Positions 1-20,000 are shown, counted from the first letter of the stretch. The stretch: DNA of 20,000 nucleotides from Raillietiella orientalis (GCA_036172245.1 JAYWIR010000007.1:5391574-5411573), one strand, 5' to 3'. Numbers and translations are program-made. The notes: a model not told the origin generated them from the sequence alone.

Positions 1-378
1 GTTCTCATTGCGTTGACAACCGTTGGCAATTGGTATCTGATCTTTTCGATATCCTCCTCCTTGAACATACGTTGAGCGCCTTTTAGTTATCAGATCTGAG
101 TGGCAAATGAGATATAGTTACACGAATGTAAATGGCATTTTGCCTCACCACCTACCGGTTGAAAGTGAACCTCGCTAGGTAAGAGATGAAGATGAAGTGT
201 TGAAAGACTGTGCTGAAGTTGAATGCGTCAATACCCCCAAATCTCTACCCTTGCACTCAAACCCAAGTCTCGAAACGCGCGGACGTGCTTTGCTGCGCTC
301 CTCGCTTGTACTGTTTGAGTCCGTCTTTGTGAGCACTGTTTCGTTTCCTTGTGGTAACTGGAACCGGCTCATTCTTCC

Positions 379-1777
379 ATGGAGTGTGGGGAACGTTTAC
401 TACGGATTCCTAGTCTGCCGGACGCCTCACTGCCGGAGAGACTTCCCACCATCGTGAAGACAGAGCCAGCCGAAGGCGCGCCTGCAGACGTGGCAGAGTC
501 GCAAGCATACGTTGCCCAAGGCTACAAGCCTGTGCTCTGCTACAAGGTAAGTACCTTGGTTCCAGAGCAGACGGGTGACCAGCTGTGGAGAGAGCTGGAA
601 CGGGTCGGGGTCCGCGAGAGCGATCTTCTGGCTTTGATGCCAGTGAACCAGCTTCGACATTGGGAGGTACACTGCAAGGATGCAGCCCTCGTCCAGCGCC
701 TGCTTCAAACCCCGTTGACAGTCGATTGGCAGCAAGTCGTTCCTACTGTGATGGACCAGTCGATCGCACTCGAACTCTCGGCCATTCGGCCGGGAATCGC
801 CAACCGCGATTTGATCAGCGCGCTGGAGGCGTTCGCCACCGTGCACGCGTTGTGGAGGCATGTCAACCCAGCGAAAGAGGTTCCGAACCTCCACTGCGGA
901 CTCGCCACCGCGCGAGTCACCATGAATGACCGGTCTGAATTGCCTTCGCAAATGGAAATTCGTGACGCGGTCGTATTTATACGGTTGGTCGGCTAGAAGC
1001 CGGCATGCGGCAACCGCAGCAAAGAGAGCCACCGTCCGCGAAAGTGCCCCACGCGTAGTTGCCGTTACTGCAAAATGCTCGGCCACTTAATTAATCAGTG
1101 CGCCGAGCTGAGAAGTAAACGATGGGTGCCAAATCGCTCCGCAGATACGCCGTCCGCGTCGAATATTCCGGTCCAGTCGGTGGGCAAGAATTGCGGCGCG
1201 AGCGCGGTATGCTCGGAACGTGGCGCTGCCACGAAAGAACCCGCAGGCGTTTCAGCGGGCAGGGAACCGCGAAAGCTCGTGCCGAAGCGTGAACAGCCGC
1301 AACCCCCTGAGGAGAGGCCTGGCGCTACGCTGCAGGCGAAGAGCGGTGTCATAAAGCCTGCGGCGCCGTGCGCGTCGGTCGCCGTCCCTGAACAAAACGG
1401 CCGCGGCACGCGCGGAAATTCTGCCGCGGCCGTCAATGAGGGACGAGCACCCCTCATCCCGCGGAAGGCCAAGTCGTCAATGGTGACCCGTTCCGCAGGT
1501 AAAGCTGCGAAAACTCGTTCGAGTTTACGTCATTCCGACGCTTTGCGTTCACCTTCCGGTAAGGAGGAGCAAAATGCAAAGGAGGCGAGGGAGCTCCATT
1601 CCGCGATCGCGAAAGCGGAGCCTGTTGCGGAGACGGAAGGGCACTGCAGAGCATCCCTTGTCCAGCGAGGGAACTCCCGAGGATCGCGAAGCTGAATGGA
1701 CCTTGGTGGGAAGCAGAAAAAAGTACGTATTCAAGAAGAAGAGGTCTTCTCGCTTCCCCACAAGATTGGTGGGGTAA
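379..1777 (+). pseudogene. LINE ORF1 (gag-like nucleic-acid-binding protein with two zinc knuckles), disrupted
   Basis: ORFs 379-996 and 1075-1695 share one frame, split only by TAG at 994-996. Read-through gives G*KPA-CGNRSKESHRPRKC-PTRS-CRYCKMLGHLINQC: an intact CX2CX4HX4C at 1060-1101 and a first knuckle at 1006-1047 whose second Cys is CGC (Arg). A low-complexity basic tail and a frameshifted EWTLVGSRKK segment follow. Confidence 0.85.
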
Positions 1778-2192
1778 AAAGGCAGTCCCGCGGGCCAAAA
1801 AAGGCAACAGCCGCAGTCACGATCGGCCGACTCTTGAGGTCTTGAAAGAGGCTAAGGCAGAGGCGGCACGCACCGCCAATGCTGGAAGAGCATCGAGCTG
1901 CCAGCAGGCAAAAAAGCAGGCCAAACGCCTGTGTCGTGTGCGGCGCGACATTCCGACTCCGATGAGGACAAAGTGCGCAAAAGTGCGCGAAAGCCCGGTA
2001 CTACCTGGACAGACGCGAAGCCAAATTTTCCAGGCGTAAGTCTGATGGTGGGAACGGTTCCCGATGCTCGGAGCCCGAGGCAATGCTCCTCGACACCCCG
2101 TGCGGCGCGGCGGAGGCAGGGGGCGGTTGTGCTCCCCAATCTGCCACGCTCTCGGTTGATGCCTCGCCGAACGGAGCGAGGAACGCGCCGCC

Positions 2193-4822
2193 ATGTCCGC
2201 AGCCGTAAAGCGCGTTCTCGAATCTTCTCGTCGCGTCCGAGTGGCCTGTTGGAACGTCAACGGGCTGCAGGACAACGAGAAGGGGCGATTGGTTGCTAAC
2301 GTTTTGCACGACTTCGATCTGGCCCTGCTGCAGGAGATTCACGCTCTCACCGAACAGCAAGCGGCCAATCTTGCAGATCGCGCAGGCGGGACGCTCCATT
2401 GGAAGAATACTTCTCCCAGAATACCTGCGGAGTAGCATACCTTGTCCGGGGCAAGGTGGCGGTGCGGTGCGGAACGCTTGTTCCGACGAGGAAGGTCGTG
2501 TGGGCCAACTTGTTCTCAAGTGGTCCGAATCGATCGACCTTGTCGTCACGAACGTGTACGCGCCGTGTGGCTCCGTGCGTCACACCGAGAAACTCGGTGA
2601 CCACCCCATGCCGTCCGAGCTGTCCGACCACCACAGGCTGGAATTTGAGCTACTCCCGCCTGGAAAGGGCCCTCTGACGCACGTCTGGAGGTTGCCGACC
2701 GACTGGCTGAAGAACCCAGTGGCTGCGGAACACCTCCGCCAGCATCTCCAGGGCTTGGTCGTTCGAGAGCTTGCGGACTGGGAAGAGTTTTGCTGCCGGT
2801 TTCCCATGCTCCCCTGCTGCTTCTGGGAAAGCGTGGCCAACGGCAGACCGTTTTTGCAGGTCCGCACTTCTTCCCGCTTCCCGGACGTCCGGCATCTTGC
2901 GGAATAGAAGGCGAAAGCTGAGCGCCATGTCTGGCACTCAAGAGCGGCTTGTCTGCTTGACGAACAGGGCCTGGAATGCTCGGCCTACGGCTTTTGCCGG
3001 CCGATGCCCCTGCTGTCAACGAGGAGGAACGCGCAACCTTGGATCTGCCCTTCACGGCGGGAAAAGTGCCTTCTTCCGCCATAGCGTGCCTGAAGAGGCG
3101 AAAGTCTCCTGGTGAGGATGGCCTGCCTGAGGAGTTCTTCCAGTGCTTCGCGGCGGAACTCATCCCTTTCTTCGCTGATACGAGAGTCCGAATCACCTTG
3201 GTGAATACAGGCGTCTTCTTGTAATCCAAGCTGTGGGTTGCGCGCTTAGGAAGAATCGCGGAATCCGTGGTAAGTCCGGAGCAGTCGTACGCTGTTCCCG
3301 GACGGTCCATGGAGGCGAACCTTTTCTTCGCGCGCACACGGATACAGCTACAGCTGCGCGTTGCGCGCTGTAGCTGTAGCTGTGGTAGGGAAAACGTGAG
3401 CGCTTACGGCGAGAGGAAACGCCGGGTGCCTTGTCGCTCGCGGTCGATCTCTATAAAGCGTTCTACTGTGTCAACTAGAAACTTCTTTAGAGTGTGGTCG
3501 TTCGTGTCGGTGCGGCGTTGGTGGGGCAGTCCTACTGGATCTGCCTGGAGATCCCCACGGCCAGGTATTTCGAGTATCTTGTGGAAGTTCGTCGTTGCCC
3601 CCCTCTTTCGCCTGCTCTTTTTCGTTTGCCCGCCCCCTTGCTCGGCCAAGCTACAGGCAACTTGCCTGTTCAGAAACGCTCTGTGGGGTCCAGCGAGGTC
3701 CAGGATCCGACTCAAGGACTTGGTGACCCGGATCCTGAACGCCGGCTTAGGCATCCTGACATTGGAGCGCATCGAACTGCAGTTGCAGCTCCAGATGTTG
3801 GCGCTTGGTGCCAACTATGGTCGTCCCCTTGGTGTGCTCCCGCGCGCCTGCTACAGAGGCGCTGCGTCGGTAGCGAGGGACTGCTTTCGCTTCTGCCGCA
3901 TGTGGAACACGCCACGAAGAACTTTGGTTTCCCCCTGAAACCCATCTACAGGCTGTTGCAAGCCCATTCTTGGATCTCCTGCCGCCCTGCCAACTTCAGC
4001 GCCTGGAGGCAGGAAGCCTTATCTTTCTGGGCCAAGCATCTGGAAGTGCCACTTACGCAACTACGTTGCGTGCGACTCTTCCCTTATTTTCCACTGGAGG
4101 ATGTGATGCAAGACCAGGGCAAGTGGACGAGCCTGGCCACCACGCCGCTCGCCTGTCTGCCCTGAGGGCAAGAGTAGACAGTTGCCTACTGGCAAGGTGG
4201 GAGGTCTTCTGCAACATTGCAGGAGCCACCCGACCCATGGATGGCTGGAGAATTAGCGAGCTGGCACACGCCGTCACGCCTTGCAACATCGCGAAGGGAA
4301 TCCTTCCGTGGAGCGTGAACTGTGTGCTTACCGAAGTACTTGTGGTCCCTCCGTCTCTCAACACCTCAAGTGTTCCCTCTTGTATGGAAACAGGACGTGT
4401 TTCTGCTGGTGCATTGGGGCTTTCATTCCAGCCAGAGCACGAACATTGTTTCCGTCTCCTCGAACTGTGGACGGTACGGAGAAGCGAAAACGCTCACCCA
4501 CCTGCTCTTTGACTGCGGTAATCTCAATAGTCTGTGGCGCAGACAAGCATCAGCACTGCAACACCGAGGGGACAAAGCATGGACCATAATGCGCTGCTTC
4601 TTCAGCCCAGGCGGCCTATCGTTAGGTGCGATCGTTGCAACCATCCGGTGCGTCCGCGCCATCGTTAAGGTCCGCCGCCAATTGAAGTCACAGGCCATCA
4701 CTGGAATCGCCGTCAACAACATGACGTCGGCAGCCAGGGCGCGTCATCTTATAGAAGACGTCAGGAAGGAAATCTCTCGCATTCAACGCCGTTTCTGGGA
4801 TCGAGGAACGTTTAACGCCTAA
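2193..4822 (+). pseudogene. LINE ORF2 (APE endonuclease, reverse transcriptase, C-terminal zinc motif), frameshifted and internally deleted
   Basis: Endonuclease motifs: VACWNVNGL, DLALLQEIH, CGVAYLV, VTNVYAP, LSDHH, WRL. RT motifs: KSPGEDGLPEEFF, SPEQSYAVPGRSMEANL, VDLYKAF, CPPLSPALF. Post-RT: LWG..RI..L..AGLGI. C-terminal: C..(Y)GEAKTLTHLLFDC. The GDFN and YADD motifs were not found, apparently deleted. Confidence 0.92.
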
Positions 4823-4847
4823 GACCCCTGTCCCCAAATCTCTCCAA

Positions 4848-4975
4848 ATATTTATATATATATATTTTTTCATATATTTTTGTTTTCCCGGTGTTCCCGC
4901 CCCCTCACGTTTCGAGCTCTTATGTTTACCGACCGGCGTGTCGGGGTTCCCTCCTTTTTTTTTTTTTTTTTTTTT
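4848..4975 (+). repeat. (TA)n run and T21 tract in the LINE 3'UTR
   Basis: TATATA run around 4848-4865; T run at 4955-4975. Confidence 0.9.
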
Positions 4976-5014
4976 CTTGTATCGTTGTCTGAGAATCTTT
5001 GTTCTTAGTTCTTC

Positions 5015-5046
5015 AATAAACTCCCCGGCGCAATCTGGGGAAAAAA
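5015..5046 (+). promoter_or_regulatory. LINE 3' end: polyadenylation signal, GCAA-loop stem-loop and short A tail
   Basis: AATAAA at 5015-5020; CCCCGG-c-GCAA-t-CTGGGG at 5023-5040; AAAAAA at 5041-5046. Confidence 0.65.
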
Positions 5047-5339
5047 GATGAAATTCGTTGGGATCACTCTTTTGGCTCTCTGAATCGGAATAGAAACTTT
5101 GAAATTCAACAAAAATTCCTCTATCTTTTCTATTTCAATGTGGTCAGATCCCGACAAATCTCCACCTTTGCACGCAAACGAAAACCGCGGGATCCTATTG
5201 ACTTTGGTCGCCATTCTCAGAGATGAAATTGGTTGAGATGACTCTCCATTGGCTTTCTGCATTGGAATAAAAGCTCCAAAATCCAACACAAGAATTTCTG
5301 TATCATTTCCCTAACCAACTCTAGGACAAATTGGTAAAA

Positions 5340-6018
5340 TTGTTCAATATTACAATGTGAACCATATATCCAAAGATGCTTTTGAACTGCTTCCTTAGGG
5401 AGAAGGCGTCAAGAAAGAAACTGAGATGTTGGAATGGCAAACATTTGTTTCTTTGCTAGGGATCAGCACCCAACGGTGGGCGATGCTCCATATGAAAAAG
5501 GAGCAGGAGTGATCATGAGCCCTGATGTGGCCGGAGATTCGATTGATGGTGCGCTTTCTGCTGGCAGGGATACTGAATTTCCTTATATGACTCCATATGG
5601 CACGAAACAGCATGGAAGCTTTGCAGAAGAATTGATAAGATTCACTCCTATGGCGATATTGTGTTTACGATTTGAGGGAGTTGTCCAAAGAGTCGTTGAT
5701 GAGCGCACTCGTAATGAGTTAACAAGAGAAAATGATGTTCTTCCAGGATGTGAGCCAGCTGCGATGGTACTTCTTGATCCATGTGTTTGACTTCTTCCTG
5801 CTGGAATAAGTAATTGATGAACGTTCTCGTTGTGGAGGTGGTATGCTTGAGTACCCTCCATATTCGAGACCTAAGCAGTGGACAGAACACGGAATGCCGT
5901 TCCGTTCCCTGCAAATTACAAACAAAAAAGTGATTGGAGGCGGAAACGGTCTGAAGTGTTAACAAAATGGAGTAGCCCTGAATTATTAGATGTAACGAGA
6001 AGGGACAAATTCACTTGG
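5340..6018 (+). pseudogene. trmD: tRNA (guanine37-N1)-methyltransferase pseudogene, Wolbachia/Anaplasmataceae-like
   Basis: Across frameshifts it reads FNITM*TIYPKM ... NICFFARDQHPTVGDAPYEKGAGVIMSPDV ... YMTPYGTK ... ILCLRFEGVVQRVVD ... VLPGCEPAAMVLLDPCV*LLP ... GGGMLEYPPYSRPKQW ... NYKQKSDWRRKRSEVLTK..PELL..DKFT. This is collinear with TrmD motifs (TVDDxPYGGGAG, CGRFEG, GGEPAA, LEYPxYTRP, WR..PELL). Internal stops at 5358 and 5788. Confidence 0.95.
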
Positions 6019-6038
6019 AGCAAATGCCAGTGTTGGCT
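6002..6038 (+). pseudogene. rplS: 5' remnant of 50S ribosomal protein L19 overlapping the trmD end
   Basis: An overlapping frame reads (G)TNSL../EQMPVLA, resembling the N-terminus of Wolbachia L19 as I recall it (MTNLL..QQMQxLA). trmD-rplS is a conserved gene order. The match is very short. Confidence 0.45.
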
Positions 6039-6109
6039 TGCAGTTGTTGCATATGCAATACGTCACACATCACTTTAGAACCCTATTAAACTTTCCATAA
6101 GATGATAAA

Positions 6110-6640
6110 TGGATCCACATTCTAAGTGGACAAACTGTGGTTCGCCAGTGTCAGCGCTGTGCTTCAAAAAGTAGAGTGATCCACGGAGGACGACAAAGGA
6201 AAGCACACGGTATTTCATCGTGGGTGCCGTATGGTACGATCGACCACGGCCATGGGGCAATGAATTCGAATCGTGATAGCGGAAGCCTTTATAGGAACGG
6301 GGAGTAACTGGGAAAACGGAGTCATAACCGTAGGAATGATCCGTAGGAATATCGGCTCATATAGCTGTGAGGGATGTTTTCCAAAGAGCTAAACGTAGGT
6401 CTTCAACCGCACTTCGGCAGCAATCACCAAAACTACAGAAAATATACCGAGACAGGCGTTTTTTGGGAAGAGAGTTCTTTAGTGCTACCAGTGGACATAT
6501 GACAGATGAAGTGATTAATGGGTTCATTAATAAACATCAACCTGGAACTCTATCTAGCTCAAGATTGGAGTGGCTTCAGCTTCTTACCGCGCTTGCAACT
6601 CAATGTGCAACCTTTCGGCTTCGGCCGATAGTGCTTCCCG
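6110..6640 (+). mobile_element. Decayed IS200-family (IS200/IS605) bacterial insertion sequence; ends approximate
   Basis: A tnpA remnant is flanked by hairpins: left TCCAC-N7-GTGGA (6114-6130), right CTtTCGGC-TTCG-GCCGAtAG (6612-6631). No terminal inverted repeats, as expected for this family. Total length about 0.55 kb. Confidence 0.8.
6183..6573 (+). pseudogene. tnpA: IS200-type Y1 (HUH) transposase pseudogene
   Basis: Reads (ACG)EDDKGKHTVFHRGCRMVRSTT ... *IRIVIAEAFIGTGSNWENGVIT ...frameshift... ISAHIAVRDVFQRAKRRSSTALRQQSPKLQKIYRDRRFLGREFFSATSGHMTDEVINGFINKH. Family pattern: GxHTVFHHRYHxVW-KY / IPPHIAVSD..RxKGRSS..LQQEFPxL.K.YW...FWxRGYFSxTSG..TDE.I..YI..H. The HUH motif is deleted and the catalytic Tyr position is Phe. 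Confidence 0.88.
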
Positions 6641-7111
6641 AACGGGACATCCTAGATGAATCCATTCCATGTGTACATCCAATGGCATTTTGCAGCGAAA
6701 TGTGTTTATTCAGGGTGTAACTCACTGAAGATTCAGAAAGAACTTTGTGCAACGAAAATGTGCTTCGTTCGTCCTTTGCCCTCTGCAATAGATTGCGCCT
6801 ACATTACATTTAGGCACTCGAAGTCTACGGGAAACAAGCAAATATGCATAACCACCGTGGAAAATGGTAACCAAATATTCACAGTGCATACATGTTTGAG
6901 GCCATTTTGTAATCCAATGTTATTTCAAAGAGCTTACTCTGGAAAATTCTGTCCAGTCTTGACAAGATGCGGAGTCTGAACTGGAAAAACTGTAAGAAGC
7001 ATTGAAAAAAATAGAGCACCGGAAAGAATTGCCCTAAGAAAGTATTTAGAACCACGTCAAAATTGGCGATAATGAACCAATTTCATGAGAATACCACTTT
7101 AGCCTTTGCAA

Positions 7112-7480
7112 TCATGCGGAAGGGACATTAGCATAGTAGTTGAAAATCACGTTCCTAGGCAACGCTCCCATTTCCTCAAAATGACAAACACTTCCATCCA
7201 TGTCTTTGATTCGAAAAGAAACTTTGCTGAACTTCTTCAGGAAGAGCTTCTCATCATCGGGGAGTTCCCTCGTCTTTTGCGCATTTCCAATATGGTAGCC
7301 GATGACGCTCATTTTTCCTTTCCTTCGAGTATCACTTTATTTCAACATATTTCAACCATTGCACCGTTGTTCCTATCACTCCATCTTTCTACAAGTCTTC
7401 ATCGTCGGTTTTCCGAATTTTTCTCTCCCCCCCCCCTCTTCCTCTACATATTCCCTTCATTTCTCAGTGGAAAAGATTAC
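7112..7480 (-). pseudogene. Unidentified decayed coding-like segment, possibly a continuation of the endosymbiont-derived block
   Basis: Purine-rich minus strand; one frame reads through several stops into GYHIGNAQKTRELPDDEKLFLKKFSKVSFRIKDMDGSVCHFEEMG. No motif recognised. Confidence 0.25.
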
Positions 7481-8035
7481 TAATTTTCCTACTGATTTTC
7501 GTCATCTGATCGGTAATTTGCGCATTCCAATTACAGATTAAGACAAGCAAATTGCAGTTTTCTCCAAACTTGAAACGTGTATTTTGCAGGCAAATAATAA
7601 CAGGCCTTCAATTCTGCAGTTGAATGAGTGCAATCATGATTTGCTGGGACTCTGGATCTCTGCATTTGAACCTCTGGCGTCCTGTGTATTTCTGGCTGGA
7701 ATAAAATATTCGCTCAATAAGGGAGGGTAGGGATATTCGTTCCATGGATGGGAAGGCCTTCCCACCCAAGCAACCCCCCAGTTTTCAGTTTGCTATCATT
7801 CCTCAACAGATTCTTACATCCTATAGGTCGCTGAAACACATGGAAGGATTCAAACACGCTGAATGTCACTCTATTAGAGGCTTTGCAAAACCCGGCTGCA
7901 GATGTCCCGCCACGAAGACGCACGCTACTTACGGATGCGCTCTACCCCCTCCCGCCACGGATGGCCAACGGTTGACCCGCTAGCCGCAAAAAGACGCAGC
8001 CTGCAGTTGCCTTAGGCGGCACAGCTCCTTCTGGT

Positions 8036-9360
8036 GTGCGTGCAGCTTTCATGAGAGGGAACGCTTGGAGCGAACCAGCCGAAAAGCTCCGCCGCGCACC
8101 AACGTCCGTGGCAGCGCGCCCACACTCCCACCGTCCGGCTGACGAGCCGGCGATCGCGCCTGCGGTGCCCACGCGCCTTCCTGCGCGCGCTCCCACCCGT
8201 GTTCCGCGACCAAAGCCGAGCGCGAGCTGGGCGCCAACGAGTTGCCGCGCACGCCGACGCCAGGAGGCGGCGCGATCGGAGCGCAGCCCTTACCGAAGAC
8301 AGACGACGCCTTCCCGCTGGCCGCTCGCTCGGCTGTCGTCGGCACCCCCGCTGCCTGCAGCTGCCCGCTGCCCGCTGAAAACAACCCCTGCGAAGCGCCC
8401 AGCGCGACGAACAGCACGTCGGCGTGAAGCTCGGTGGACAGAAGACTGGCCTGGGCACCCTACGCTGCCTGAAGAAGCGCCTCCTCCACGCAAGTCGACG
8501 ATTCCTCCGTCCCTGAAACGAAAGGAAAGAAATGAATTTCGTTCACGGAAGACGAATCTTCCGTGGCGTTTTCCGCAGAGCACCCTCCACCCTCTTCGCG
8601 GCTTGCAGTCGAGCTCGTCCGAGCGTTCTGGTGCTCCACAACGTACGTGGGGAAGCGGCCGAGGTCCAAGGACGAGTGCCGATCTCGCCGTGCCGCGTGC
8701 TGCTGAGAAATGCAGCCGAGATTCAGGAGAGCACGCCGAACAGCACACAGCCCGCGTCCGTCGAACGCAGGCACCTGGAGCAGTTGGCTGCGCCAGGCAC
8801 CACGCACGACGCCGTCCATGGCGCGCCGGTAGACGCCGCTCCAGCTCCACTGGCAGCACTCCTCCTGCATCTGGAAAAAGCAGCGAAATTGGCGTTCGGC
8901 TCGTCGCCATCGGGCAGACTGGTTCGGCTGCTTCGCACGCGGGCGAGCGGATGGGGAAGCCAGCGCGGAAGCGTCCATTCAGCTCGCCCAGCGAAACGGT
9001 GAGCGCGCACGAACGCGATCCGAGCCACGCTCCCAGCGGGCAACGGAGAGGACGGGCACGGGCGCCCACTCCATCGCCCGGCCCGCCGCACGTCGCTCAG
9101 CTCTCTCTCTGCACTCTCGAGCACCAAGCATGGACCGCTGGAGAGCGAGCGCTGGCAAGCGGCGTGCGAAGCAGGCAAGACGGCGCAGGCGCGCCCGCAG
9201 CGGCGGTGGCCGGCGTGGGGTCACCGCCGGCGGCAGCCACAGCCGCCGCTTGCGCGCGCCCCGTCCCGCTCGCTGGCTGACCCCTGCGCCTCGCATCCGG
9301 CGCCGCTTGCCCACCGCGCCAGCGCCCAACCTACCTTCTCACCCTCCGGCGTCGCACTGC
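8036..9360. other. GC/CpG-rich island of unknown origin
   Basis: Sharp compositional shift. The long overlapping ORFs on both strands are Arg/Pro/Ala-rich and have no recognisable domain. Confidence 0.6.
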
Positions 9361-11527
9361 TCACTTCCTCCGACGAACCGACAGCTGCCACACACGCGCA
9401 CCGACAACAAGTCACCGTGGTCAAACACAATCGTGCACAGAGAGGCACAGAGAGAGAGCGCACACATGCCCGATGCGGACACGACGAAAGCTTCCTTTCG
9501 AATGGAATGAGAAAATTTTCATCCTTTGTTGGAACGTTCGACGACGGAACAATGATGCCGGTCGTCCTGGGCGACGCCCTGGCCGGCGGTCGACGCTGGC
9601 AACAGCTCTCTTCGCACCTGTCCCGTCCCCATCTACAAATATTGCAAAACGGCAATCCATTCTGTGGATGGACGCTAAGGGCTCCTACATACGCCCATCA
9701 GCACACTTTCCAATCAGCGTGGACGTTCTCATTTCCGTACGCCACCATTACCGAAGCAGGCTGCGTGCAAGATGTACACGCTCCCATCAAGAAGGGCAAA
9801 ATGGAAACGTCGACATCCGCAAGCACGTGTCGGTGGACGGAAAAGCTGCCTAGCACTCCGGATCACTTTGCATCTTCAGGTACTTTCTGAGCAAAGTGGA
9901 CTGCCCGCACATTCGCCGGTCGACACCGAAATTGTCGGCTCTGCTGCGGAAATAGGTGAGTGTGCGTCACTGCCAATATGCCCGCAGTTCCATCCATGCG
10001 AATGCAATTCTATCCGTCTCCCCTCGAAGTGTTAACCACCGAAGCGTGTTCGCGTGAACGCACCGATATCCTGGAATATTGAGTATTTGCAGCATGAAAT
10101 ATTGAGAATCGATGTGTGTGCGTATACACTTCTACATTCCTGTTGATGCGCTACTCCCAATCGAGAGATTCAAAGACTGATGGGAAGATTGATAGAAGCG
10201 TGTATGCAAATATGTGAACGTAGGTTCATATCAACAGGGACTGCTGAACATACAAACACGCACACGCATTTATATATATGTATACATGTATTGAGTAGCA
10301 ATGCGTACATCAACATCTGCATGCATTTTACAGCGCGGATAGTGACAGCTCTTGCATCCACGGGTTGAATCCGTGCCATCATCGTTAGGGCTCGACTGGT
10401 GCTAGAAATCAGCACGCAGCGAATGGTGATCACCAGGATGGCATTAGGGCTACTGCGCGGTGACCTCACCTGGGAGAGGAAGCCTCCGACAGCCATCCCC
10501 GTTTGAAACAAGGCTTGGAACGGAGGGCCTGGTGATCCTTGTCCCCTTTCTCCCTTTGTTTTGTTGATTATGTCTTTGCTCTCCCTTACCCATTCGTTCC
10601 GTGCCGACGCTTTTCCCTCTGATCGCGGTGTACGCAGAGCGATACCGAAGATCCCCTTCCCACCAAGCTTGTTTCTTTTTTTTTGTGCCTTTGTCCCTGA
10701 CCGTTCTGGACATTCCGTCTTCCCACCCTTCGTGGCCGCGCACCTACCCTTCGTTTCTTGTTGTCGTCGGTTGGCAACTTTCCTTCCCAACCGACTGATT
10801 TCCTTTTATAAACGAAACCTCGCAACATGAGCGTTTGAAAAACTTCAACGTGCGCCTTCTGTCAGGAGAAGGCGCCTCGGTCCACGAGGTGTGCACAGCG
10901 GTGCACACGCGCACCATCGACCACGTTTTCCTTGATCGGCTTCTGTGCATCGGCTCGCGCAGGCGCGGCAAGGTGCGGTCGGAGCTATCCGATCACTTCC
11001 GGATGGTATTCAAAGTTCGGCCAATTAGCAGCGGTCCCCCCTCGATTGCGGACTAGGAAAATCTTCCTGGTGCCGCGAAACCCCTTCCCTCGTTCTTTCG
11101 GAGTTTTCAGGCTGCAGACGCCCACGGAGTGGGGCCGCGGCAAACGCTCGGTCCGTCTCGGACGAGCTTTTCCATCAGCTTCCCTTTTTCGCTGTTCTGT
11201 CTCGAACGCTATGTCTGTTCAGAGCTGCAGGGTTTCTTGGGAGACGAAATGTTGAGTGAAACTTTAATTCTTGTTCAGACACTTCCCTCGAAGCTAAAAT
11301 GGTGGCACACGATCGACACGGAAGTATCGCGACACAGGTGGTTCTGTGACGCTTTCGTAGCCCACGTGGCAAAAGTTCTGTCACACTTTGGTGTGAATGA
11401 GGGCACGGATGCGCGTTGTTTTCCTGCTGAGCGATCCAGCCTCCCAGTATCGCACAGTTTGAGCGCCACGAAGACCTGAGAGTTTGATTGCCTTAGCCAT
11501 CTTTCCGTTGCTAGTGGCTCCTCCGTC

Positions 11528-11680
11528 TGCCTTCTGAACTGTGCTGGCACCGCACGGAAACTTGTTTCCGGGATCGGCCCCTTCTGCGCAATGGAATTGC
11601 CCGTGGCGCGAACGATTCTCCTTCCGCCCATTTGCGGAATGTTCCTCTTCGTTCACGAGCCTCTTCTGCTGCCGAGCAAG
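11528..11680 (-). pseudogene. Degenerate ankyrin-repeat remnant
   Basis: QQKRLVNEEEHSA...FHCAEGADPGNKFPCGASTVQKA is in exact register with the ankyrin consensus GADPNxKDxxGxTPLHxA (G,A,D,P,K,G,A identical). Confidence 0.45.
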
Positions 11681-12159
11681 TTTCGCAACGTTTGGTGCTA
11701 CCCAGTCTCACGCTCAGCATGGCTCTTCCTTGATCGGGATGCTTTCCTGCTAGGGATTGCCGAGCGTGCTCTCTTTGCAATGCTCTCACGGAGGACGCAA
11801 ATGTTCTCCTATTTCTTCTAAAAGTGACGCCTCCAATCTCTCTGGAATGCTGCCTACCAACGAACTTATAGCACGTTTCACTTCCCCTCGAAGCCTTTCT
11901 TCTTTTTATCTGCAATTTCTCTATCTCTGTGCTGTGCCTTGGAATTCTTCTAAAGAAATGGCCTGTCATGTGTTCTCAGGGATCCCTATTTGAAAGTGGT
12001 TCCAAAATTTTCTTCTGGACCATGTCCTCAAAAGTTTCTTGTGCCCGTTTCTTCACCTTACTGCCTGGAGGGGTGACTGACGGAAGACAGCTGTTCATAA
12101 TCAGCGTGACCGATTCGTCCGCCAGTTCCAACCCTCCCAGGCAATTCTTCGTTCTCTCT

Positions 12160-12535
12160 CCATGTAGGTATTCGTCTCCATGCAAATCTTGTCTTCCGAA
12201 AAAGGAAAGAAGCTACACTGCCAGGACCACTAGCGGAAAGTGAGGGTGACTGTCCTCTGTTATCTTTTACACTAGGATGGGCTCCATCGCTTAAGAGTGA
12301 AGCTGCAACTACATCAGGCTTTGCCCCCTTTCCCAGCTATACTCGATACAGCACGTAATGCCATTCTCCTCCCGTGAGGTTAAGAACAATTTCTAAATCT
12401 TGATGATCCTCATTATCTTCTCGAAACTCTTACATAGAAGCCTTACAGAACCAGAGAACCTTCGTAACCAGAGGAAGAAAGGTAGACATTAGGGATACTT
12501 CATGGTTGTATATTTAGCTTCTGTTCTTTTTGCAT
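12160..12535 (-). pseudogene. Ankyrin-repeat protein pseudogene, Wolbachia ANK-like
   Basis: MQKEQKLN (ATG at 12535) ...frameshift... EFREDNEDHQDLEIVLNLTGGE..VLY..*...LLSDGAHPSVKDNRGQSPSLSA (12297-12232; consensus LLxxGADPNxKDxxGxTPLHxA), then frameshifted QDLHGDEYLH (12191-12162). May extend to about 11900. Confidence 0.65.
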
Positions 12536-12699
12536 TGAACGTGTGCGAAAAAACCACATGCTTGTTAAATCGTCAAATCAAGAGTCATCAGAGGATTCCT
12601 AGCCCACTACAGCAGGGAACTGTGAAAGAAGAGAAATTCAGTACGTCTTCTGCGGCTCATGAATCACGTCCTTGATGGGGACCAGCTGACTCTCTTTCT

Positions 12700-13970
12700 T
12701 CATGCTACCTCTCTTTGCATTGCTTGCCAGCCAGTATCTTGAGGAGTCACAAGCGAATTGAATGTCCAGTCGATAGACGTTTCTTTGGTGTCGGTGTATT
12801 TTCAGATGTAATTATCTCTATGGATTTCCGAATTACACTCGCTCTGTGGCAGTTTTCGTTTAGAATTTCTGATTTTTTCGATAAATAGGTCACCCTCATG
12901 ATCGATCAGAATCAAATGCTCTTTGCCTGCTGTTTTTCAGATAGAAAAGATTACAGTTGCTGACATCTTCCATGGGTCGGCGGGTCCAAAGGAGCGAAAT
13001 AAGGGACATGGAGTCTCCGCATCGGTGAGAGATGCCCCGGAGAAAGGAAAACCCGAACCGATTTGACCAGCTTTCTGCGCACTGATGGCACGATTCCGTA
13101 CCGTCGCACTGCACGTCCCGACTGATGAAGAACGCACCTGCAGACGGTCCTTCTCTTCGGGGTTCGAGGACGCCTCTTCTGCCGATATCTCCGTTCCCTC
13201 GGCAGGGTGTGATTTCCGGTCCACACTCCAAATATCGGGGTCGCTCTCCGCACTTTCTTCAAATCCCGCCCCGTAGACCTGAGGAAAATCGGCAAATTCC
13301 TTCTCCCGTGCTACAGTCGTGCTGCTTGGGTTCCCCTTTTGAGTTCTGGACGGACCCTCCGGGTTCGTTTGTTGGTTCCTTCCCAAGGAGCGTAATGCCA
13401 CCTCTTCCAACCTTTTCTTATGCTTGCGGAATAGAAAGCAAGCCGTGTTTCTACGTGATGGGATTTTCTCGTTCAGGATCTTGCTGTGTACACCTTCTTG
13501 ATGCCCCTCTTCAAAGCACTGGTGGTTCCTGCAGCTCCATCCTGTTTCCTCGGGACAATTTCGCTTTTTGCAGTTCCTCTTCTTCCTTGTTCCTCTCGAC
13601 CTGAGCTTTTGGCTTTTCCACGCCACGCTGCTTGCATTGCTTCTGACCTTCCTCATCCTGCTGCTTTTCGCGTTTCGCAATCTGTTTTTCTCCTTCTTCT
13701 TTGCTTCTTCAGCTTAGGATTCATCCTCTTTTGATCCCTCCTTGCACATCGGATGGCTTCCTCATCTCTCTTTTCGAATTCTCGTCTCTCTTTATCGGCC
13801 ACAGTGTGCTTTCTCTTGAACAGCCACGTGCTTTTGCGCATCTTCGGGAGAGTTTCCTCCAACGACAGCGTGTCCTCGCTTTCCCCGCTCTCCCTTAGCT
13901 GCACTCCACGCAACTTGCGATTGCCCATCTCCGAGGTGAACCAATGCCACCTTTTCCAGTCGGCTTTCAT
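12700..13970 (-). pseudogene. Decayed gene with a Glu/Lys/Arg-rich, coiled-coil-like N-terminal part; product unknown
   Basis: ORF 13680-12937 continues in frame through isolated TGA codons (SI*KTAGKEHLILIDHEG...) to TGA at 12702-12700. Charged segments (KERREFEKRDEE, EEKQIAKREKQQDEE) switch frames upstream. It is co-oriented with, and ~165 bp upstream of, the ANK remnant. Confidence 0.4.
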
Positions 13971-15340
13971 GCTGAAAAATTCGAAGACTGCCAGCGGCTA
14001 CTCCTCTTCCGTTTGCTTCGGGTGGTTCTCGGAAGAAACGGTAACAGCAGACGGCTTTCCGAACGGTAACTGGCTTTCCTCTGTCCAATTACAAGCTTTG
14101 TGCTCCGGGCAATGAAGTTCTGCCTCCCCCAAACACAGGGACGTGATCCTGGACCACATGGGAATGCAGGCTGAGCACAATGCTTTCCAAATAGGGCGTG
14201 TTCGACCTGGAAATCATGCAAAAGTCATGAGCCACCATGCGCATCGCATGTACTGCACACTATCAAGAACGTTGCATTCATCGTACCGATACTCAACTCT
14301 CCTTGTCCATCAGCTTTTCTGCTTTCTCAAGGCAACCGGGTTCGCAAGTCGACAATTTTTCAGGAATACCCCTGAGGCAAGATACACGGGATGTGTTTAA
14401 AATGGCAAGCGTTAAGAATCGCTTTCCGTTTAGCTTGGGAAGCGAATCCGAGGTTGTGGATTCGCAGAGAAGCGAGTTACTTCCGGATGATGTTCGCTAT
14501 CTGCTACGATGTTCCCAACTTATAAACAACGCCCAAGTAGATGAGCAATCTATCCAGCAGCAGTACAATGTTCAGATGTGCGATCTGTTCCACGAAATCC
14601 TCGAGTCGAACTGGGAACCGAATTCACAATCAGCACACGTTTCAGAAAAAAGGTCCTTAGCTAAGAAACAAGAATGGTTGCCAAACACAGAGGTGTCCGT
14701 ACTCACGTCGCACAATCGACTGAGCACGCACCCAAGCAACGCGTTTGGCGAACGACAATCCATCCTGGTGGTGCGCACAGTGGTGCACGCAAACCTGCGA
14801 AACAACTCGACCGGCGGTCTTTTTGGAAAGTCTCTTTGGCTCGTTTCCTTTTTCCCGATTCTCGCAATCGGGGTGAAGAATCGACCCCGTTGGTTGACTT
14901 GCTGCTTCACGCTTTCGTCTATCGGCGTGTGTACGATGTGTACGCTGCTAACGCACTTGGTCACACGCGCTATCCAAGGCGTGCGTGTTCCGTTTTCGTG
15001 AAGGATGCGCATGTCCATCGAGCCTGTGCACGCGTCTTCTCCCTCACCACCGTCTGGGTCAGAGTACGCATTCTGCAACGCAGCACATGCGAGTTGCGCC
15101 AAACGGAAAGGACGCGGTTGACATCGAATGTCTTCTTCAGCACGGCAGCTGTCCGTGGAGCATGGGCTTCCCGGAGAAACACGGTCCTTCGGAGGTACGC
15201 ATCCTCCTCGCCTGCAACAACAGCAAGGAGGCTCGCGAGCATCATGCTGGTGAGTGTGCAATCCACGCTGCACCCATTCAATGTTCGCCAAAAAAAAAAA
15301 CTCCGTCGGGAAAAAGTCGTTTTCGAATTTGCAACTTTTT

Positions 15341-18300
15341 AATTCCGACACTGGTTACCATGAAAACGACACAGAGTCCACAGTGCCCCACCCTAATGAA
15401 ACGTCGGACTCATCTCAATGTCCTTCTGAACCAACGAAAAAGGACGTTTGTGCTTGCATCCATCACGGGAATGTTCCGGTAACTGAAAACGGATCCTCCG
15501 TGAAAAAACGCAAAACTGCAAAGGTGAAATCTGCTGATTTCGAATTGATTCCGAACTCCCAAAAGTTGCAAATTCGGACGACATATTGAATCAAAGAGAG
15601 GAAAAACCTTTTCCTTCTAATTCCGACACTGGTTACCATGAAAACGACAGAGAGTCCACAGTGCCCCACCCTAATGAAACGTCGGACTCATCCCAATGTC
15701 CTTCTGAACCAAAGAAAAAGGACGTTTGTGCTTGCATCCATCACGGGAATGTTCCGGTCACTGAAAACGTATCCTCCGTGAAAAAACGCAAAAGTGCAAA
15801 GGTCAAATCTGCTGATTTCGAATTGATTCAGAACCCCCAAAAGTTGCCAATTCCGACCACATAATGAAACAAAGAAAGGGAAAACCTTTTCCTTGTAATT
15901 CCGACACTGGTTACCATGAAAACGACACAGAGTCCACAGTGCCTCACCATAATGAAACGTAGGACTCATCTCAATGTCCTTCTGAACCCACGAAAATGGA
16001 CGTTTGTGCTTCTATCCATCACGGGAATGTTCTGGTCACTGAAAACGTATCCTCCGTGAAAAAACGCAAAAGTGCAAAGGTCAAATCTTCTAATTTCGAA
16101 TTGATTCCGAACCCCCAAAAGTTGCAAATTCAGACCACATAATGAAACAAAGAGAGGGAAAACCTTTTCCATGTAATTCCGACACTGGTTACCATGAAAA
16201 CGACACAGAGTCCACAGTGCCCCACCCTAATGAAACGTAGGACTCATCTGAATGTCCTTCTGAACCCACGAAAAAGGACGTTTGTGCTTCTATCCATCAC
16301 GGGAATGTTCCGGTAACTGAAAAGGGATCCTAAGTGAAAAAACGCAAAAGTGCAAAGGTCAAATCTGCTGATTTCGAATTGATTCCGAACCCCCAAAAGT
16401 TGCAAATTCGGACCACATAATGAAACAAAGAAAGGGAAAACCTTTTCCTTCTAATTCCGAAACTGGTTACCATGAAAACGACACAGAGTCCACAGTGCCC
16501 CACCCTAATGAAACGTAGGACTCATCTCAATGTCCTTCTGAACCCACGAAAATGGACGTTTGTGCTTCTATCCATCACGGGAATGTTCCGGTAACTGAAA
16601 AGGGATCCTACGTGAAAAAACGCAAAAGTGCAAAGGTCAAATCTGCTGATTTCGAATTGATTCCGAACCCCCAAAAGTTGCAAATTCGGACCACATAATG
16701 AAACAAAGAGAAGGAAAACCTTTTTCTTCTAATTCCGACACTGGTTACCATGAAAACGACACAGAGTCCACAGTGCCCCACCCCAATGAAACGTAGGACT
16801 CATCTGAATGTCCTTCTGAACCCACGAAAATAAACGTTTGTGCTTCTATCCATCACGGGAATGTTCCGGTAACTGAAAAGGGATCCTACGTGAAAAAACG
16901 CAAGAGTGCAAAGGTCAAATCTGCTGATTTCGAATTGATTCCGAACCCCCAAAAGTTGCAAATTCGGACCACATAATGAAACAAAGAGAAGGAAAACCTT
17001 TTTCTTCTAATTCCGACACTGGTTACCATGAAAACGACACAGAGTCCACAGTGCCCCACCCTAATGAAACGTAGGACTCATCTCAATGTCCTTCTGAACC
17101 CACGAAAATGGACGTTTGTGCTTCTATCCATCACGGGAATGTTCCGGTAACTGAAAAGGGATCCTACGTGAAAAAACGCAAGAGTGCAAAGGTCAAATCT
17201 GCTGATTTCGAATTGATTCCGAACCCCCAAAAGTTGCCATTTCGGACCACATAATGAAACAAAGAGAAGGAAAACCTTTTTCTTCTAATTCCGACACTGG
17301 TTACCATGAAAACGACACAGAGTCCACAGTGCCCCAACCTAATGAAACGTCGGACTCATCTCAATGTCCTTCTGAACCCACGAAAATGGACGTTTGTGCT
17401 TCTATCCATCACGGGAATGTTCCGGTAACTGAAAAGGGATCCTACGTGAAAAAACGCAAAAGTGCAAAGGTCAAATCTGCTGATTTCGAATTGATTCCAA
17501 ACCCCCAAAAGTTGCAAATTCGGACCACATACTCAAACAAAGAGAAGGAAAACCTTTTCTTTCTAATTCCGACACTGGTTACCATGAAAACGACACAGAG
17601 TCCACAGTGCCCCACCCTAATGAAACGTCGGACTCATCTCAATGTCCTTCTGAACCCACGAAAATGGACGTTTGTGCGTATATCCATCACAGGAATTTTG
17701 CGGTCACTGAAAACGGATCCTCCGTGGAAAAACGCAAAAGTGCAAAGGTGAAATCTGCTGATTTCGAATCGATTCCAAACCCCCAAAAGTTGCAAATTCG
17801 GACCACATAATGAAACAAAGAGAAGGAAAACCTTTTCCTTCTAATTCCGACACTGGTTACCATGAAAACGACACAGAGTCCACAGTGCCCCACCCTAATG
17901 AAACGTAGACTCATCTCAATGTCCTTCTGAACCCACGAAAATAAACGTTTGTGCTTCTATCCATCACGGGAATGTTCCGGTAACTGAAAAGGGATCCTAA
18001 GTGAAAAAACGCAAAAGTGCAAAGGTCAAATCTGCTGATTTCGAATTGATTCCGAACCCCCAAAAGTTGCAAATTCGGACCACATAATGAAACAAAGAGA
18101 GGGAAAACCTTTTCCTTCTAATTCCGACACTGGTTACCATGAAAACGACACAGAGTCCACAGTGCCCCACCCTAATGAAACGTAGGACTCATCTCAATGT
18201 CCTTCTGAACCCACGAAAATGGACGTTTGTGCTTCTATCCATCACGGGAATGTTCCGGTAACTGAAAACGGATCCTCCATGAAAAAACGCAAAAGTGCAA

Positions 18301-18800
18301 AGGTCAAATCTGCTGATTTCGAATTGATTCCGAACCCCCAAAAGTTGCCATTTCGGACCACATAATGAAACAAAGAGAAGGAAAACCTTTTTCTTCTAAT
18401 TCCGACACTGGTTACCATGAAAACGACACAGAGTCCACAGTGCCCCACCCTAATGAAACGTAGGACTCATCTCAATGTCCTTCTGAACCCACGAAAATGG
18501 ACGTTTGTGCTTCTATCCATCACGGGAATGTTCCGGTAACTGAAAAGGGATCCTACGTGAAAAAACGCAAAAGTGCAAAGGTCAAATCTGCTGATTTCGA
18601 ATTGATTCCGAACCCCCAAAAGTTGCAAATTCGGACCACATAATGAAACAAAGAAAGGGAAAACCTTTTCTTTCTAATTCCGACACTGGTTACCATGAAA
18701 ACGACACAGAGATCACAGTGCCCCACCCTAATGAAACGTAGGACTCATCTCAAAGTCCTTCTGAACCCACGAAAATGGAAGTTTGTGCTTCTATCCATCA
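15341..18800. repeat. Satellite array family A, 278-bp monomer, about 12.4 copies
   Basis: The anchor TTCCGAC recurs at 15343, 15621, 15899, 16177, 16455 (variant TTCCGAA), 16733, 17011, 17289, 17567, 17845, 18122, 18400 and 18678. Period 278, with one 277. Confidence 0.98.
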
Positions 18801-20000
18801 AAAGCTGCAAAGTTGGACCACATAATGAATGAGAGCGAAGGAGAATATTCCCCTTGTAAGTCCGACACTGGTTACCATGAAAACAAGACAGAATCCAAAG
18901 TGCCACGCCCTAATGAAATTTCGAACTCTTCTTAATCATCCTCTGAAAGCAGAAATTGGAATGGCTTTCGGCTCTCCATGAAAACGATTTGCCACTCACT
19001 GCAAAAGGATGCTTCGTGAAGAGGCGCAAAAGTGCAATGGTGAAATCTTTTGTTTTCTAATATCTTACATATCCGCAAAAGCTGCAAAGTTGGACCAGAT
19101 AATGAATGAGAGCGAAGGAGAATATTCCCCTTGTAAGTCCGACACTGGTTACCATAAAAAAAGACAGAGTCCAAAGAGCCACGCCCTAATGAAATTTGGA
19201 ACTCTTCTTAATCATCCTCTGAAAGCAGAAATTGGAAGGGCTTTCGGCTCTCCGTGAAAGGGATTTGCCACTCTCTGCAAATGGATGCTTCGTGAAGAGG
19301 CGCAAAAGTGCAATGGTGAAATCTTTTGTTTTCTAATATCTTACATATCCGCAAAAGCTGCAAAGTTGGACCAGATAATGAATGAGAGCGAAGGAGAATA
19401 TTCCCCTTGTAAGTCCGACACTGGTTACCATGAAAACAAGACAGAGTCCAAAGAGCCACGCCCTAATGAAATTTGGAACTCTTCTTAATCATCCTCTGAA
19501 AGCAGAAATTGGAAGGGCTTTCGGCTCTCCGTGAAAGGGATTTCCCACTCACGGATAAAAAATGCTTCTTGAAAAGGCGCAAAAGTGCAATGGTGAAATC
19601 TTCTGTTTTCTAATTGTTTACAAATCCCGAAAAGCTGCGAAGTTGGACCACATAATGAATGAGAGCGAAGGAGAATATTAACCTTTTGAGTCCGACACTG
19701 GTTACCATGAAAACAAGACAGAGAGCAAAGTGCCACTCCCTAATAAAATTTCGAGCTCTTCTTAATCATCCTCTGAAAGCAGAAATTGGAAAGGCTTTCG
19801 GCTCTCCATGAAAGGGATTTGCCACTCTCTGCAAATGGATGCTTCTTCAAGAGACGCAAAAGTGCAATGGTGAAATCTTCTGTTTTCTAATTGTTTACAA
19901 ATCCCGAAAAGCTGCGAAGTTGGACCACATAATGAATGTGAGCGAAGGAGAATATTAACCTTTTGAGTCCGACACTGGTTACCATGAAAACAAGAAAGAG
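18801..20000. repeat. Satellite array family B, ~277-bp monomer homologous to family A, runs off the window
   Basis: The anchor GTCCGAC recurs at 18860, 19137, 19413, 19690 and 19967 (periods 277/276/277/277). It shares conserved boxes with family A but differs widely between them. Confidence 0.97.

Follow-up and report, generated by a model that had tools for sequence, protein, structure and literature searches.

A decayed trmD-rplS locus followed by an IS200 element

A 20,000-nucleotide stretch of DNA from the Raillietiella orientalis assembly (GCA_036172245.1, JAYWIR010000007.1:5391574-5411573), hereafter the window, had been described in an earlier note as carrying a broken trmD, the start of an overlapping rplS and an IS200 remnant at 5047-6640, probably a nuclear Wolbachia transfer (nuwt). 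The window is without long open reading frames (ORFs), and its guanine-plus-cytosine (GC) content is 0.40-0.46 in 5001-7500 against 0.49-0.70 in the flanks. Six-frame translation of 5000-7800 revealed TrmD-like text running across three shifting frames, with an open piece of 118 codons at 5434-5790. In a protein search with this piece, the sole match among longer proteins was TrmD of the Wolbachia of Cruorifilaria tuberocauda (P0001; 57% identity, full coverage, E 6e-32), and the same protein was placed by tblastn on 5338-6015 of the window (E 4.5e-51). The DNA of 5328-6017 matched trmD in 57 of 60 Wolbachia species genomes. Wolbachia is also the source of the closest DNA, the best five genomes giving 75% identity across all 690 nt (E 1e-139 to 1e-143). 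Over 663 unbroken codon columns, identity to Wolbachia trmD was 79%, compared with at most 57% for other Anaplasmataceae.

The gene copy itself occupies 5340-6018 on the plus strand, 12 nt downstream of the point where the DNA match begins, and all 235 of its 235 codons are represented. The damage was mapped by nucleotide alignment to a named Wolbachia locus (L002). Deletions of 9, 2, 14 and 4 nt follow positions 5378, 5420, 5814 and 5898, the last three of them shifting the frame, and in-frame TGA stops stand at 5358-5360, at about 5422-5424 and at 5788-5790. The start codon has changed from ATG to TTG (5340-5342) and the stop codon to TGG (6016-6018), and 129 of the 235 projected residues are identical to those of L002. 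A full-length but broken trmD had thus been recognized correctly, as had its motifs YMTPYGTK, GGGMLEYP and DKFT. The open piece scored 18.3 bits against Pfam PF01746 (cut-off 27.3) and 64.8 bits (E 6e-18) against NCBIfam TIGR00088, whose whole-protein cut-off is 220. The sequence at 5340-6018 is a pseudogene of the TrmD family, tRNA (guanosine(37)-N1)-methyltransferase, and not a working member of it. A trmD match was obtained in each of the 60 live Wolbachia genomes; in 57 it formed one unbroken frame, in two it held a single TAG and in one it came in two pieces. A 24-base stretch spanning the 14-nt deletion had no match in a metagenome scan.

The end of trmD overlaps a 5' remnant of rplS (6002-6038, plus strand) that corresponds to about its first 16 codons. 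The rplS ATG is likewise located within the last trmD codons in eight named Wolbachia loci, and rplS of live Wolbachia is a whole gene of 125-127 codons. The start codon position in the window (6002-6004) reads GGG and about 13 nt of rplS have been deleted after the trmD end, while 6019-6038 still agrees with rplS at 18 of 20 bases (score 30; maximum 24 in 200 shuffles). The overlapping rplS-like start was therefore a correct observation, and the order of trmD followed by an overlapping rplS is that of the Wolbachia loci; beyond the ~16 codons, no further rplS match was found in the window. Supergroup-F-type Wolbachia loci (L002-L005, of which L003 belongs to the Wolbachia of Penenirmus auritus) share with the window the 235 codons of trmD, the C-terminal DKFT and the rplS start overlapping the trmD end. 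They differ in two genes that the window lacks, purC on the opposite strand upstream and, downstream, a complete rplS of 125-127 codons. The genes flanking trmD in five Wolbachia loci (purC, purM, whole rplS and others) gave no match in the window by tblastn at E 0.01.

About 50 nt after rplS codon 16, an IS200 element of Wolbachia type begins (6087-6635, plus strand), which has tnpA only and is complete but decayed, as judged from Pfam, DNA, tblastn and its hairpins. Pfam Y1_Tnp matched the C-terminal half on 6340-6717 (23.7 bits, cut-off 23, E 5.6e-5), and NCBIfam assigned the piece to the IS200/IS605 transposases (E 5.6e-5). The same fragment had no match at E 0.01 among nine candidates from the protein collection, and its likeness to Wolbachia emerged only from DNA and tblastn comparison with elements taken from Wolbachia genomes. 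The Y1 transposase family was also searched for in the 60 Wolbachia genomes, where it was found in 18, and the fetched elements were compared with the window. Three of these (L089, L094 and L104) represent a common element of ~610 nt. The window DNA at 6082-6636 was 70% identical to the L089 element over 600 nt (E 5.6e-78), and the L094 and L104 elements were 74% identical over 311 nt and 68.5% identical over 572 nt, respectively; the 148-residue Wolbachia TnpA reached the window by tblastn with E 1e-26. The load of IS200-type Y1 transposases was very uneven among the genomes, with 60, 16 and 14 matches in G035, G055 and G020 and none in 42 of the 60.

The window copy is collinear with the Wolbachia elements from end to end. 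Both subterminal hairpins (6114-6130 and 6615-6628, read from the alignment rather than folded), which in the IS200 group take the place of terminal inverted repeats, are located as in those elements, and the 148-codon Y1 frame is still recognizable. It departs from them in its 68.5-74% identity and in deletions of 24, 8 and 12 nt that disrupt the transposase frame. The 8-nt deletion falls in the HUH region, so the element cannot move. It is a whole but dead Wolbachia-type element with a divergence similar to that of trmD. An IS200 had therefore been noticed rightly, but "remnant" does not describe an element that is present in its entirety.

Donor of the locus and neutral decay

To place the donor, a codon-aligned DNA tree was made with 72 rows, comprising the window, with its broken codons and stops masked, 58 distinct trmD sequences of Wolbachia and an outgroup of 13 other Anaplasmataceae. 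Identical rows were collapsed, and L011 and L012 (Pelagibacteraceae) as well as L045 and L055 (coding sequence not recovered) were left out. The window was found inside Wolbachia, in a 25-row clade with a support of 99/98 that also holds the strains of Cruorifilaria, Dipetalonema, louse, cicada and Paracimex, and its end branch measured 0.37 changes per site. The DNA difference from the window is 21.3-21.9% for the five nearest rows, 23-40% for other Wolbachia and 43-52% for the outgroup. Placement of the reconstructed trmD outside all live Wolbachia was rejected by the approximately unbiased (AU) test (p 0.012), in agreement with the Wolbachia assignment first proposed. A donor from another member of the Anaplasmataceae or Rickettsiales, or from an unsampled sister lineage of Wolbachia, might be suspected from the long end branch of the window (0.37 in DNA, 1.15 in protein), as the placement of long branches is unsure. 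We consider such a donor most improbable, because the window differs in DNA by 21-40% from the 58 rows of Wolbachia and by 43-52% from the 13 of other Anaplasmataceae, the nesting is supported by 99/98 with the outside placement rejected, and the IS200 likewise aligns with Wolbachia elements over its whole length. The donor genus was for certain Wolbachia.

Within the genus, the placement is looser. In a careful protein tree of named sequences, where its end branch was 1.15, the window paired with P0002 (91/81), and the nearest named rows by path include the Wolbachia of Madathamugadia hiepei. A quick protein tree had grouped it with the strains of Madathamugadia, Penenirmus, Tettigetta, Mansonella and Meromenopon (Shimodaira-Hasegawa-like approximate likelihood ratio test 85-87); it is superseded by the careful tree, which is less resolved. 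Passages of PMC10195089 assign wMhie and the Mansonella strains to supergroup F and make supergroup T the sister group of F, C, J, S and D, and louse Wolbachia strains are treated as supergroup F in the title and passages of PMC9903615. Several results weigh against a firm supergroup assignment. The AU test rejects neither a placement of the window beyond its clade's 24 live rows (p 0.077; this clade was chosen after the tree was seen) nor one with the 8-row Cruorifilaria/Dipetalonema subclade (p 0.27), and the backbone of the careful protein tree is unresolved, with only the P0002 pairing somewhat supported. A supergroup-F-type Wolbachia as the donor is our best estimate only.

The pattern of change in trmD is that of a sequence released from selection. 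Compared with the consensus of eleven F-like rows, the differences at codon positions 1, 2 and 3 were 0.235, 0.217 and 0.181, whereas pairs of live Wolbachia genes differ by about 0.10, 0.07 and 0.30. Because the differences are spread evenly over the three positions, trmD has drifted without selection, and the absence of a third-position excess points to little divergence on the bacterial side and a donor near the present F-like cluster. The GC content has risen to 0.436 from 0.38 in the F-like consensus, with changes from AT to GC at 73 of 412 sites and from GC to AT at 35 of 251 sites. All indels of at least 2 nt in trmD and IS200 are deletions. Together, these data describe a dead copy drifting in a GC-richer genome and not bacterial contamination. 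The heavy decay had already been taken as the sign of an old insertion, and the flat codon-position differences, the frameshifts and the stops indeed speak for a long neutral decay. A difference of 21.3% corresponds to ~0.25 changes per site (Jukes-Cantor), and the tree branch to 0.37. With the neutral rates of arthropods, the insertion would be millions to about a hundred million years old.

Transcription has been reported for some nuwts, and with a 118-codon frame still open at 5434-5790 one could imagine that the host has co-opted the transferred trmD, which would still function as a protein or an RNA. This is hardly credible for a copy that has three frameshifts and three stops, has lost its start and stop codons and reaches 64.8 bits in its open piece against a TrmD cut-off of 220. 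Moreover, the 94 non-synonymous and 14 synonymous codon changes relative to the F-like consensus, taken with the flat codon-position profile, indicate that there has been no selection on the protein.

Surroundings of the insert and a second Wolbachia-like fragment

The start of the Wolbachia piece, previously given as 5047, must be moved to about 5328, since 5047-5327 is without Wolbachia likeness; local alignment for homology upstream of 5328 scored 18, under the shuffle mean of 21.6. The extent of the piece was further examined by searching the DNA of 4823-5335, 6600-8000 and 7900-15400 against the 60 Wolbachia genomes. From the first two regions, only the end of the insertion element (6601-6636) and short low-complexity matches were returned. 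In the third, a part of a Wolbachia-like ankyrin-repeat gene was found on the minus strand at 12184-12687, ~5.5-6 kb from the IS200 and interrupted by an internal stop. Its DNA at 12208-12431 matched five of the 60 genomes, at best with 67% identity over 212 nt (E 3.6e-12), and tblastn aligned 12184-12426 over 84 residues with a Wolbachia ORF of >950 residues, at 43% identity (E 7e-12). All four matched Wolbachia ORFs contain ankyrin repeats, and a non-generic segment, F.(E/Q/K)DN.D.QDL(E/K).VLNL..GE, is common to the four and the window.

In addition, the 4928 ORFs of at least 60 residues from an entire Wolbachia contig of 1.45 Mb (73 tiles) were run against the window, with the reversed window as a control. 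None did better than the best reversed-window match (2.5e-4) except trmD (2e-53) and two ankyrin ORFs whose matches extend to 12687 (4e-6 and 8e-6). The ankyrin piece lies within a second low-GC island (12001-13000, GC 0.42-0.46). On these similarities, we read 12184-12687 as a putative second Wolbachia-derived fragment, from the same event as the trmD piece or from another.

Upstream, a degenerate non-long-terminal-repeat retrotransposon (long interspersed nuclear element, LINE) extends over 1-4822 on the plus strand, with a GC content of 0.50-0.64, and was recognized from motifs read by eye, Exo_endo_phos and Atlas. It has a CCHC knuckle at ~1060-1101, the start of an APE endonuclease at ~2235-2390 (WNVNGL...LQEIH; Exo_endo_phos E 1.7e-4), frameshifted reverse transcriptase (RT) motifs at ~3100-3650 and a C-terminal Cys/His zinc motif at ~4433-4537. 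An open frame persists in an ORF1-like piece (358-993), whose nearest Atlas clusters are 100% Eukaryota, most commonly Arthropoda, with a score of 0.96. The LINE does not directly abut the Wolbachia piece, as had been stated, because its reading frame stops at 4822, ~500 nt before trmD. AT- and T-rich tracts then continue to ~4977. Among them, a (TA)n palindrome (4836-4879) and a run of ~24 T (~4953-4976) stand between the LINE stop and a two-copy direct repeat. The tracts at 4836-4977 may be the 3' end of the LINE or an old insertion scar. The direct repeat (5046-5327) lies just upstream of trmD and has no Wolbachia likeness; its copies of ~100 nt have a spacing of 175 nt and are 88% identical over their first 25 nt.

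Downstream of the IS200, a stretch of low GC content (6636-7950, 0.40-0.47) gave no match; it may belong to the host, or be Wolbachia DNA that has decayed past recognition. Proteins from 5008-5310 (minus strand) and 6656-6976 (plus strand) each had a match in one of the 60 Wolbachia genomes, with per-genome E values of 0.008 and 5e-4, and were taken as chance. An ORF at 7115-7336 (minus strand) had two matches among 1.84 billion representatives, P0121 (1289 residues) and P0122 (1735 residues). Both were rejected as artefacts without any relevant family, P0121 being matched only in a 21-residue stretch repeated ten times and P0122 in five stretches by the same short match. Farther on, 8000-9500 has a GC content of 0.63-0.70 and an open frame of 414-434 codons (7976-9277, plus strand). 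This frame matched no Pfam or NCBIfam family and probably arose by chance in GC-rich repeat DNA.

The window ends, as first described, in a tandem satellite (15340-20000) with a 278/277-bp period and ~17 copies, which runs off the window. It consists of 12.5 copies of the 278-bp unit (95% matches) and, from ~18800, of a 277-bp variant (93% matches). Rfam and tRNA scans of the window found nothing. Family scans detected no intact bacterial gene family in 98 fragments of 4319-9277 or in 102 fragments of at least 70 residues from the remaining sequence as far as 15586, and an NCBIfam scan of 62 window fragments found no intact bacterial gene.

These surroundings bear on where the trmD pseudogene resides. 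Reduced symbionts do have pseudogenes, and the locus might accordingly belong to a very degenerate symbiont genome and not to a host chromosome. There is very little to recommend this idea in a contig that has a LINE with APE and RT motifs and a CCHC knuckle, a 4.6-kb satellite and stretches with a GC content of 0.63-0.70. Nor did the scanned fragments contain an intact bacterial gene family or a tRNA, and only the trmD and ankyrin ORFs of the 4928 beat the reversed-window control.

An assembly chimera or contamination, in which reads of bacteria or another organism were misjoined to host repeats, deserves somewhat more attention, as the flanks are repeats (LINE and satellite), where misjoins are commonest, and the junction is seen in one assembled contig. 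Even so, we regard it as very unlikely. A living Wolbachia would have a working trmD, as the 57 of 60 genomes with one unbroken frame illustrate, but the window copy has three frameshifts, three stops and 21% change spread evenly across codon positions. In addition, its GC content has risen toward that of the flanks, and 6 kb farther along the contig there is another decayed Wolbachia-like piece. Given the decay, the raised GC content and the second decayed piece, the sequence would come from a non-bacterial, neutrally evolving setting even if it had been misjoined.

We therefore hold, with high confidence, that 5328-6636 is an old, dead nuclear Wolbachia transfer in repeat-rich animal DNA. 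This supports the interpretation offered in the earlier note: the best matches are to Wolbachia, the tree nests the sequence inside the genus, its decay is neutral and the flanks look eukaryotic. The segment at 5328-6636 is of Wolbachia origin, fully decayed and neutral in its pattern of change, and has eukaryote-like flanks on the same contig, where the Wolbachia-like DNA stands together with the LINE, the GC-rich DNA and the satellite. Judged from these flanks, the host of the nuwt is probably an arthropod.

Several observations count against this interpretation or parts of it. The junction between Wolbachia-like and host-like DNA is known from one assembled contig. The curated models give weak evidence for the LINE, with Exo_endo_phos at 21.9 bits (below the cut-off of 24.5) and zf-RVT at E 0.11; the RT pieces had no Pfam RVT match up to E 5, their motifs being recognized by eye, and the arthropod label, which comes from Atlas, is no more than a lead. 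Beside the recognized pieces, low-GC DNA totalling about 1.6 kb (5046-5327 and 6636-7950) is assignable to neither Wolbachia nor host. Finally, an IS200 ~50 nt past codon 16 of rplS, an essential gene, is impossible in a living donor, so that a rearrangement, a deletion or a mosaic join has to be assumed. The trmD-rplS-IS200 arrangement would thus require a deletion after the transfer or a mosaic join at integration.

Proposed history and meaning of the transfer

We propose that DNA of a germ-line Wolbachia became integrated into a chromosome of its animal host, which was probably an arthropod, presumably by double-strand break repair, the usual route. The inserted piece would have carried the trmD-rplS locus and the IS200, and the ankyrin fragment may have entered together with it or in a separate event. 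The donor would have come from the clade of supergroups F, C, D and J and been most like present supergroup-F-type strains. No part of it functions any longer: free of selection, the genes have acquired ~21% base changes, indels that are mostly deletions and a shift toward the higher GC content of the host. Host repeats surround the insert and probably split it. A bolder version, in which trmD-rplS-IS200 and the ankyrin piece are the last recognizable parts of one large, very old supergroup-F-type insertion in an arthropod lineage, cut by transposons, is conceivable but doubtful. Since third codon positions are no more changed than the others, almost all change would have occurred on the host side, and the fossil would preserve a near-ancestral F-type sequence.

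Such a history has well-known parallels. Nuwts, known from arthropods and nematodes, are common and well described. Nuclear copies of mitochondrial and plastid DNA (NUMTs and NUPTs) are captured at chromosome breaks, are dead on arrival, decay neutrally, are often mosaic and are later split by transposons. The same logic applies to the window, where the donor is a facultative or obligate endosymbiont and not an organelle. In a preprint (bioRxiv 10.1101/2025.03.17.643741), 22 filarial nematode genomes are screened for nuwts, F-derived nuwts being among those reported. As described there, the filarial nuwts resemble the window locus in being Wolbachia fragments in nuclear DNA that are assigned to supergroups by phylogeny and read as evidence of past infection. 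They differ from it in that the host of the window is arthropod-like, only ~1.3 kb and 0.5 kb are recognizable, and the neutral change amounts to 21%.

The Wolbachia-derived piece of ~1.3 kb is an ordinary case of the known transfer of DNA from bacterium to host, which adds a case and not a concept. For annotation, 5328-6636 and 12184-12687 should be treated as bacterial-derived pseudogenes, neither as contamination to be filtered out nor as genes to be called. The interest of the locus is modest unless the host is unexpected, and its value depends on that host: in a lineage without known Wolbachia, or with a different supergroup, the fossil would be the trace of an infection since lost or replaced. 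Such an infection could be dated if related hosts had orthologous copies. If a single large F-type insertion proved to be true, it could help to put an age on the supergroup and reveal an earlier infection in a host from which Wolbachia may be gone.

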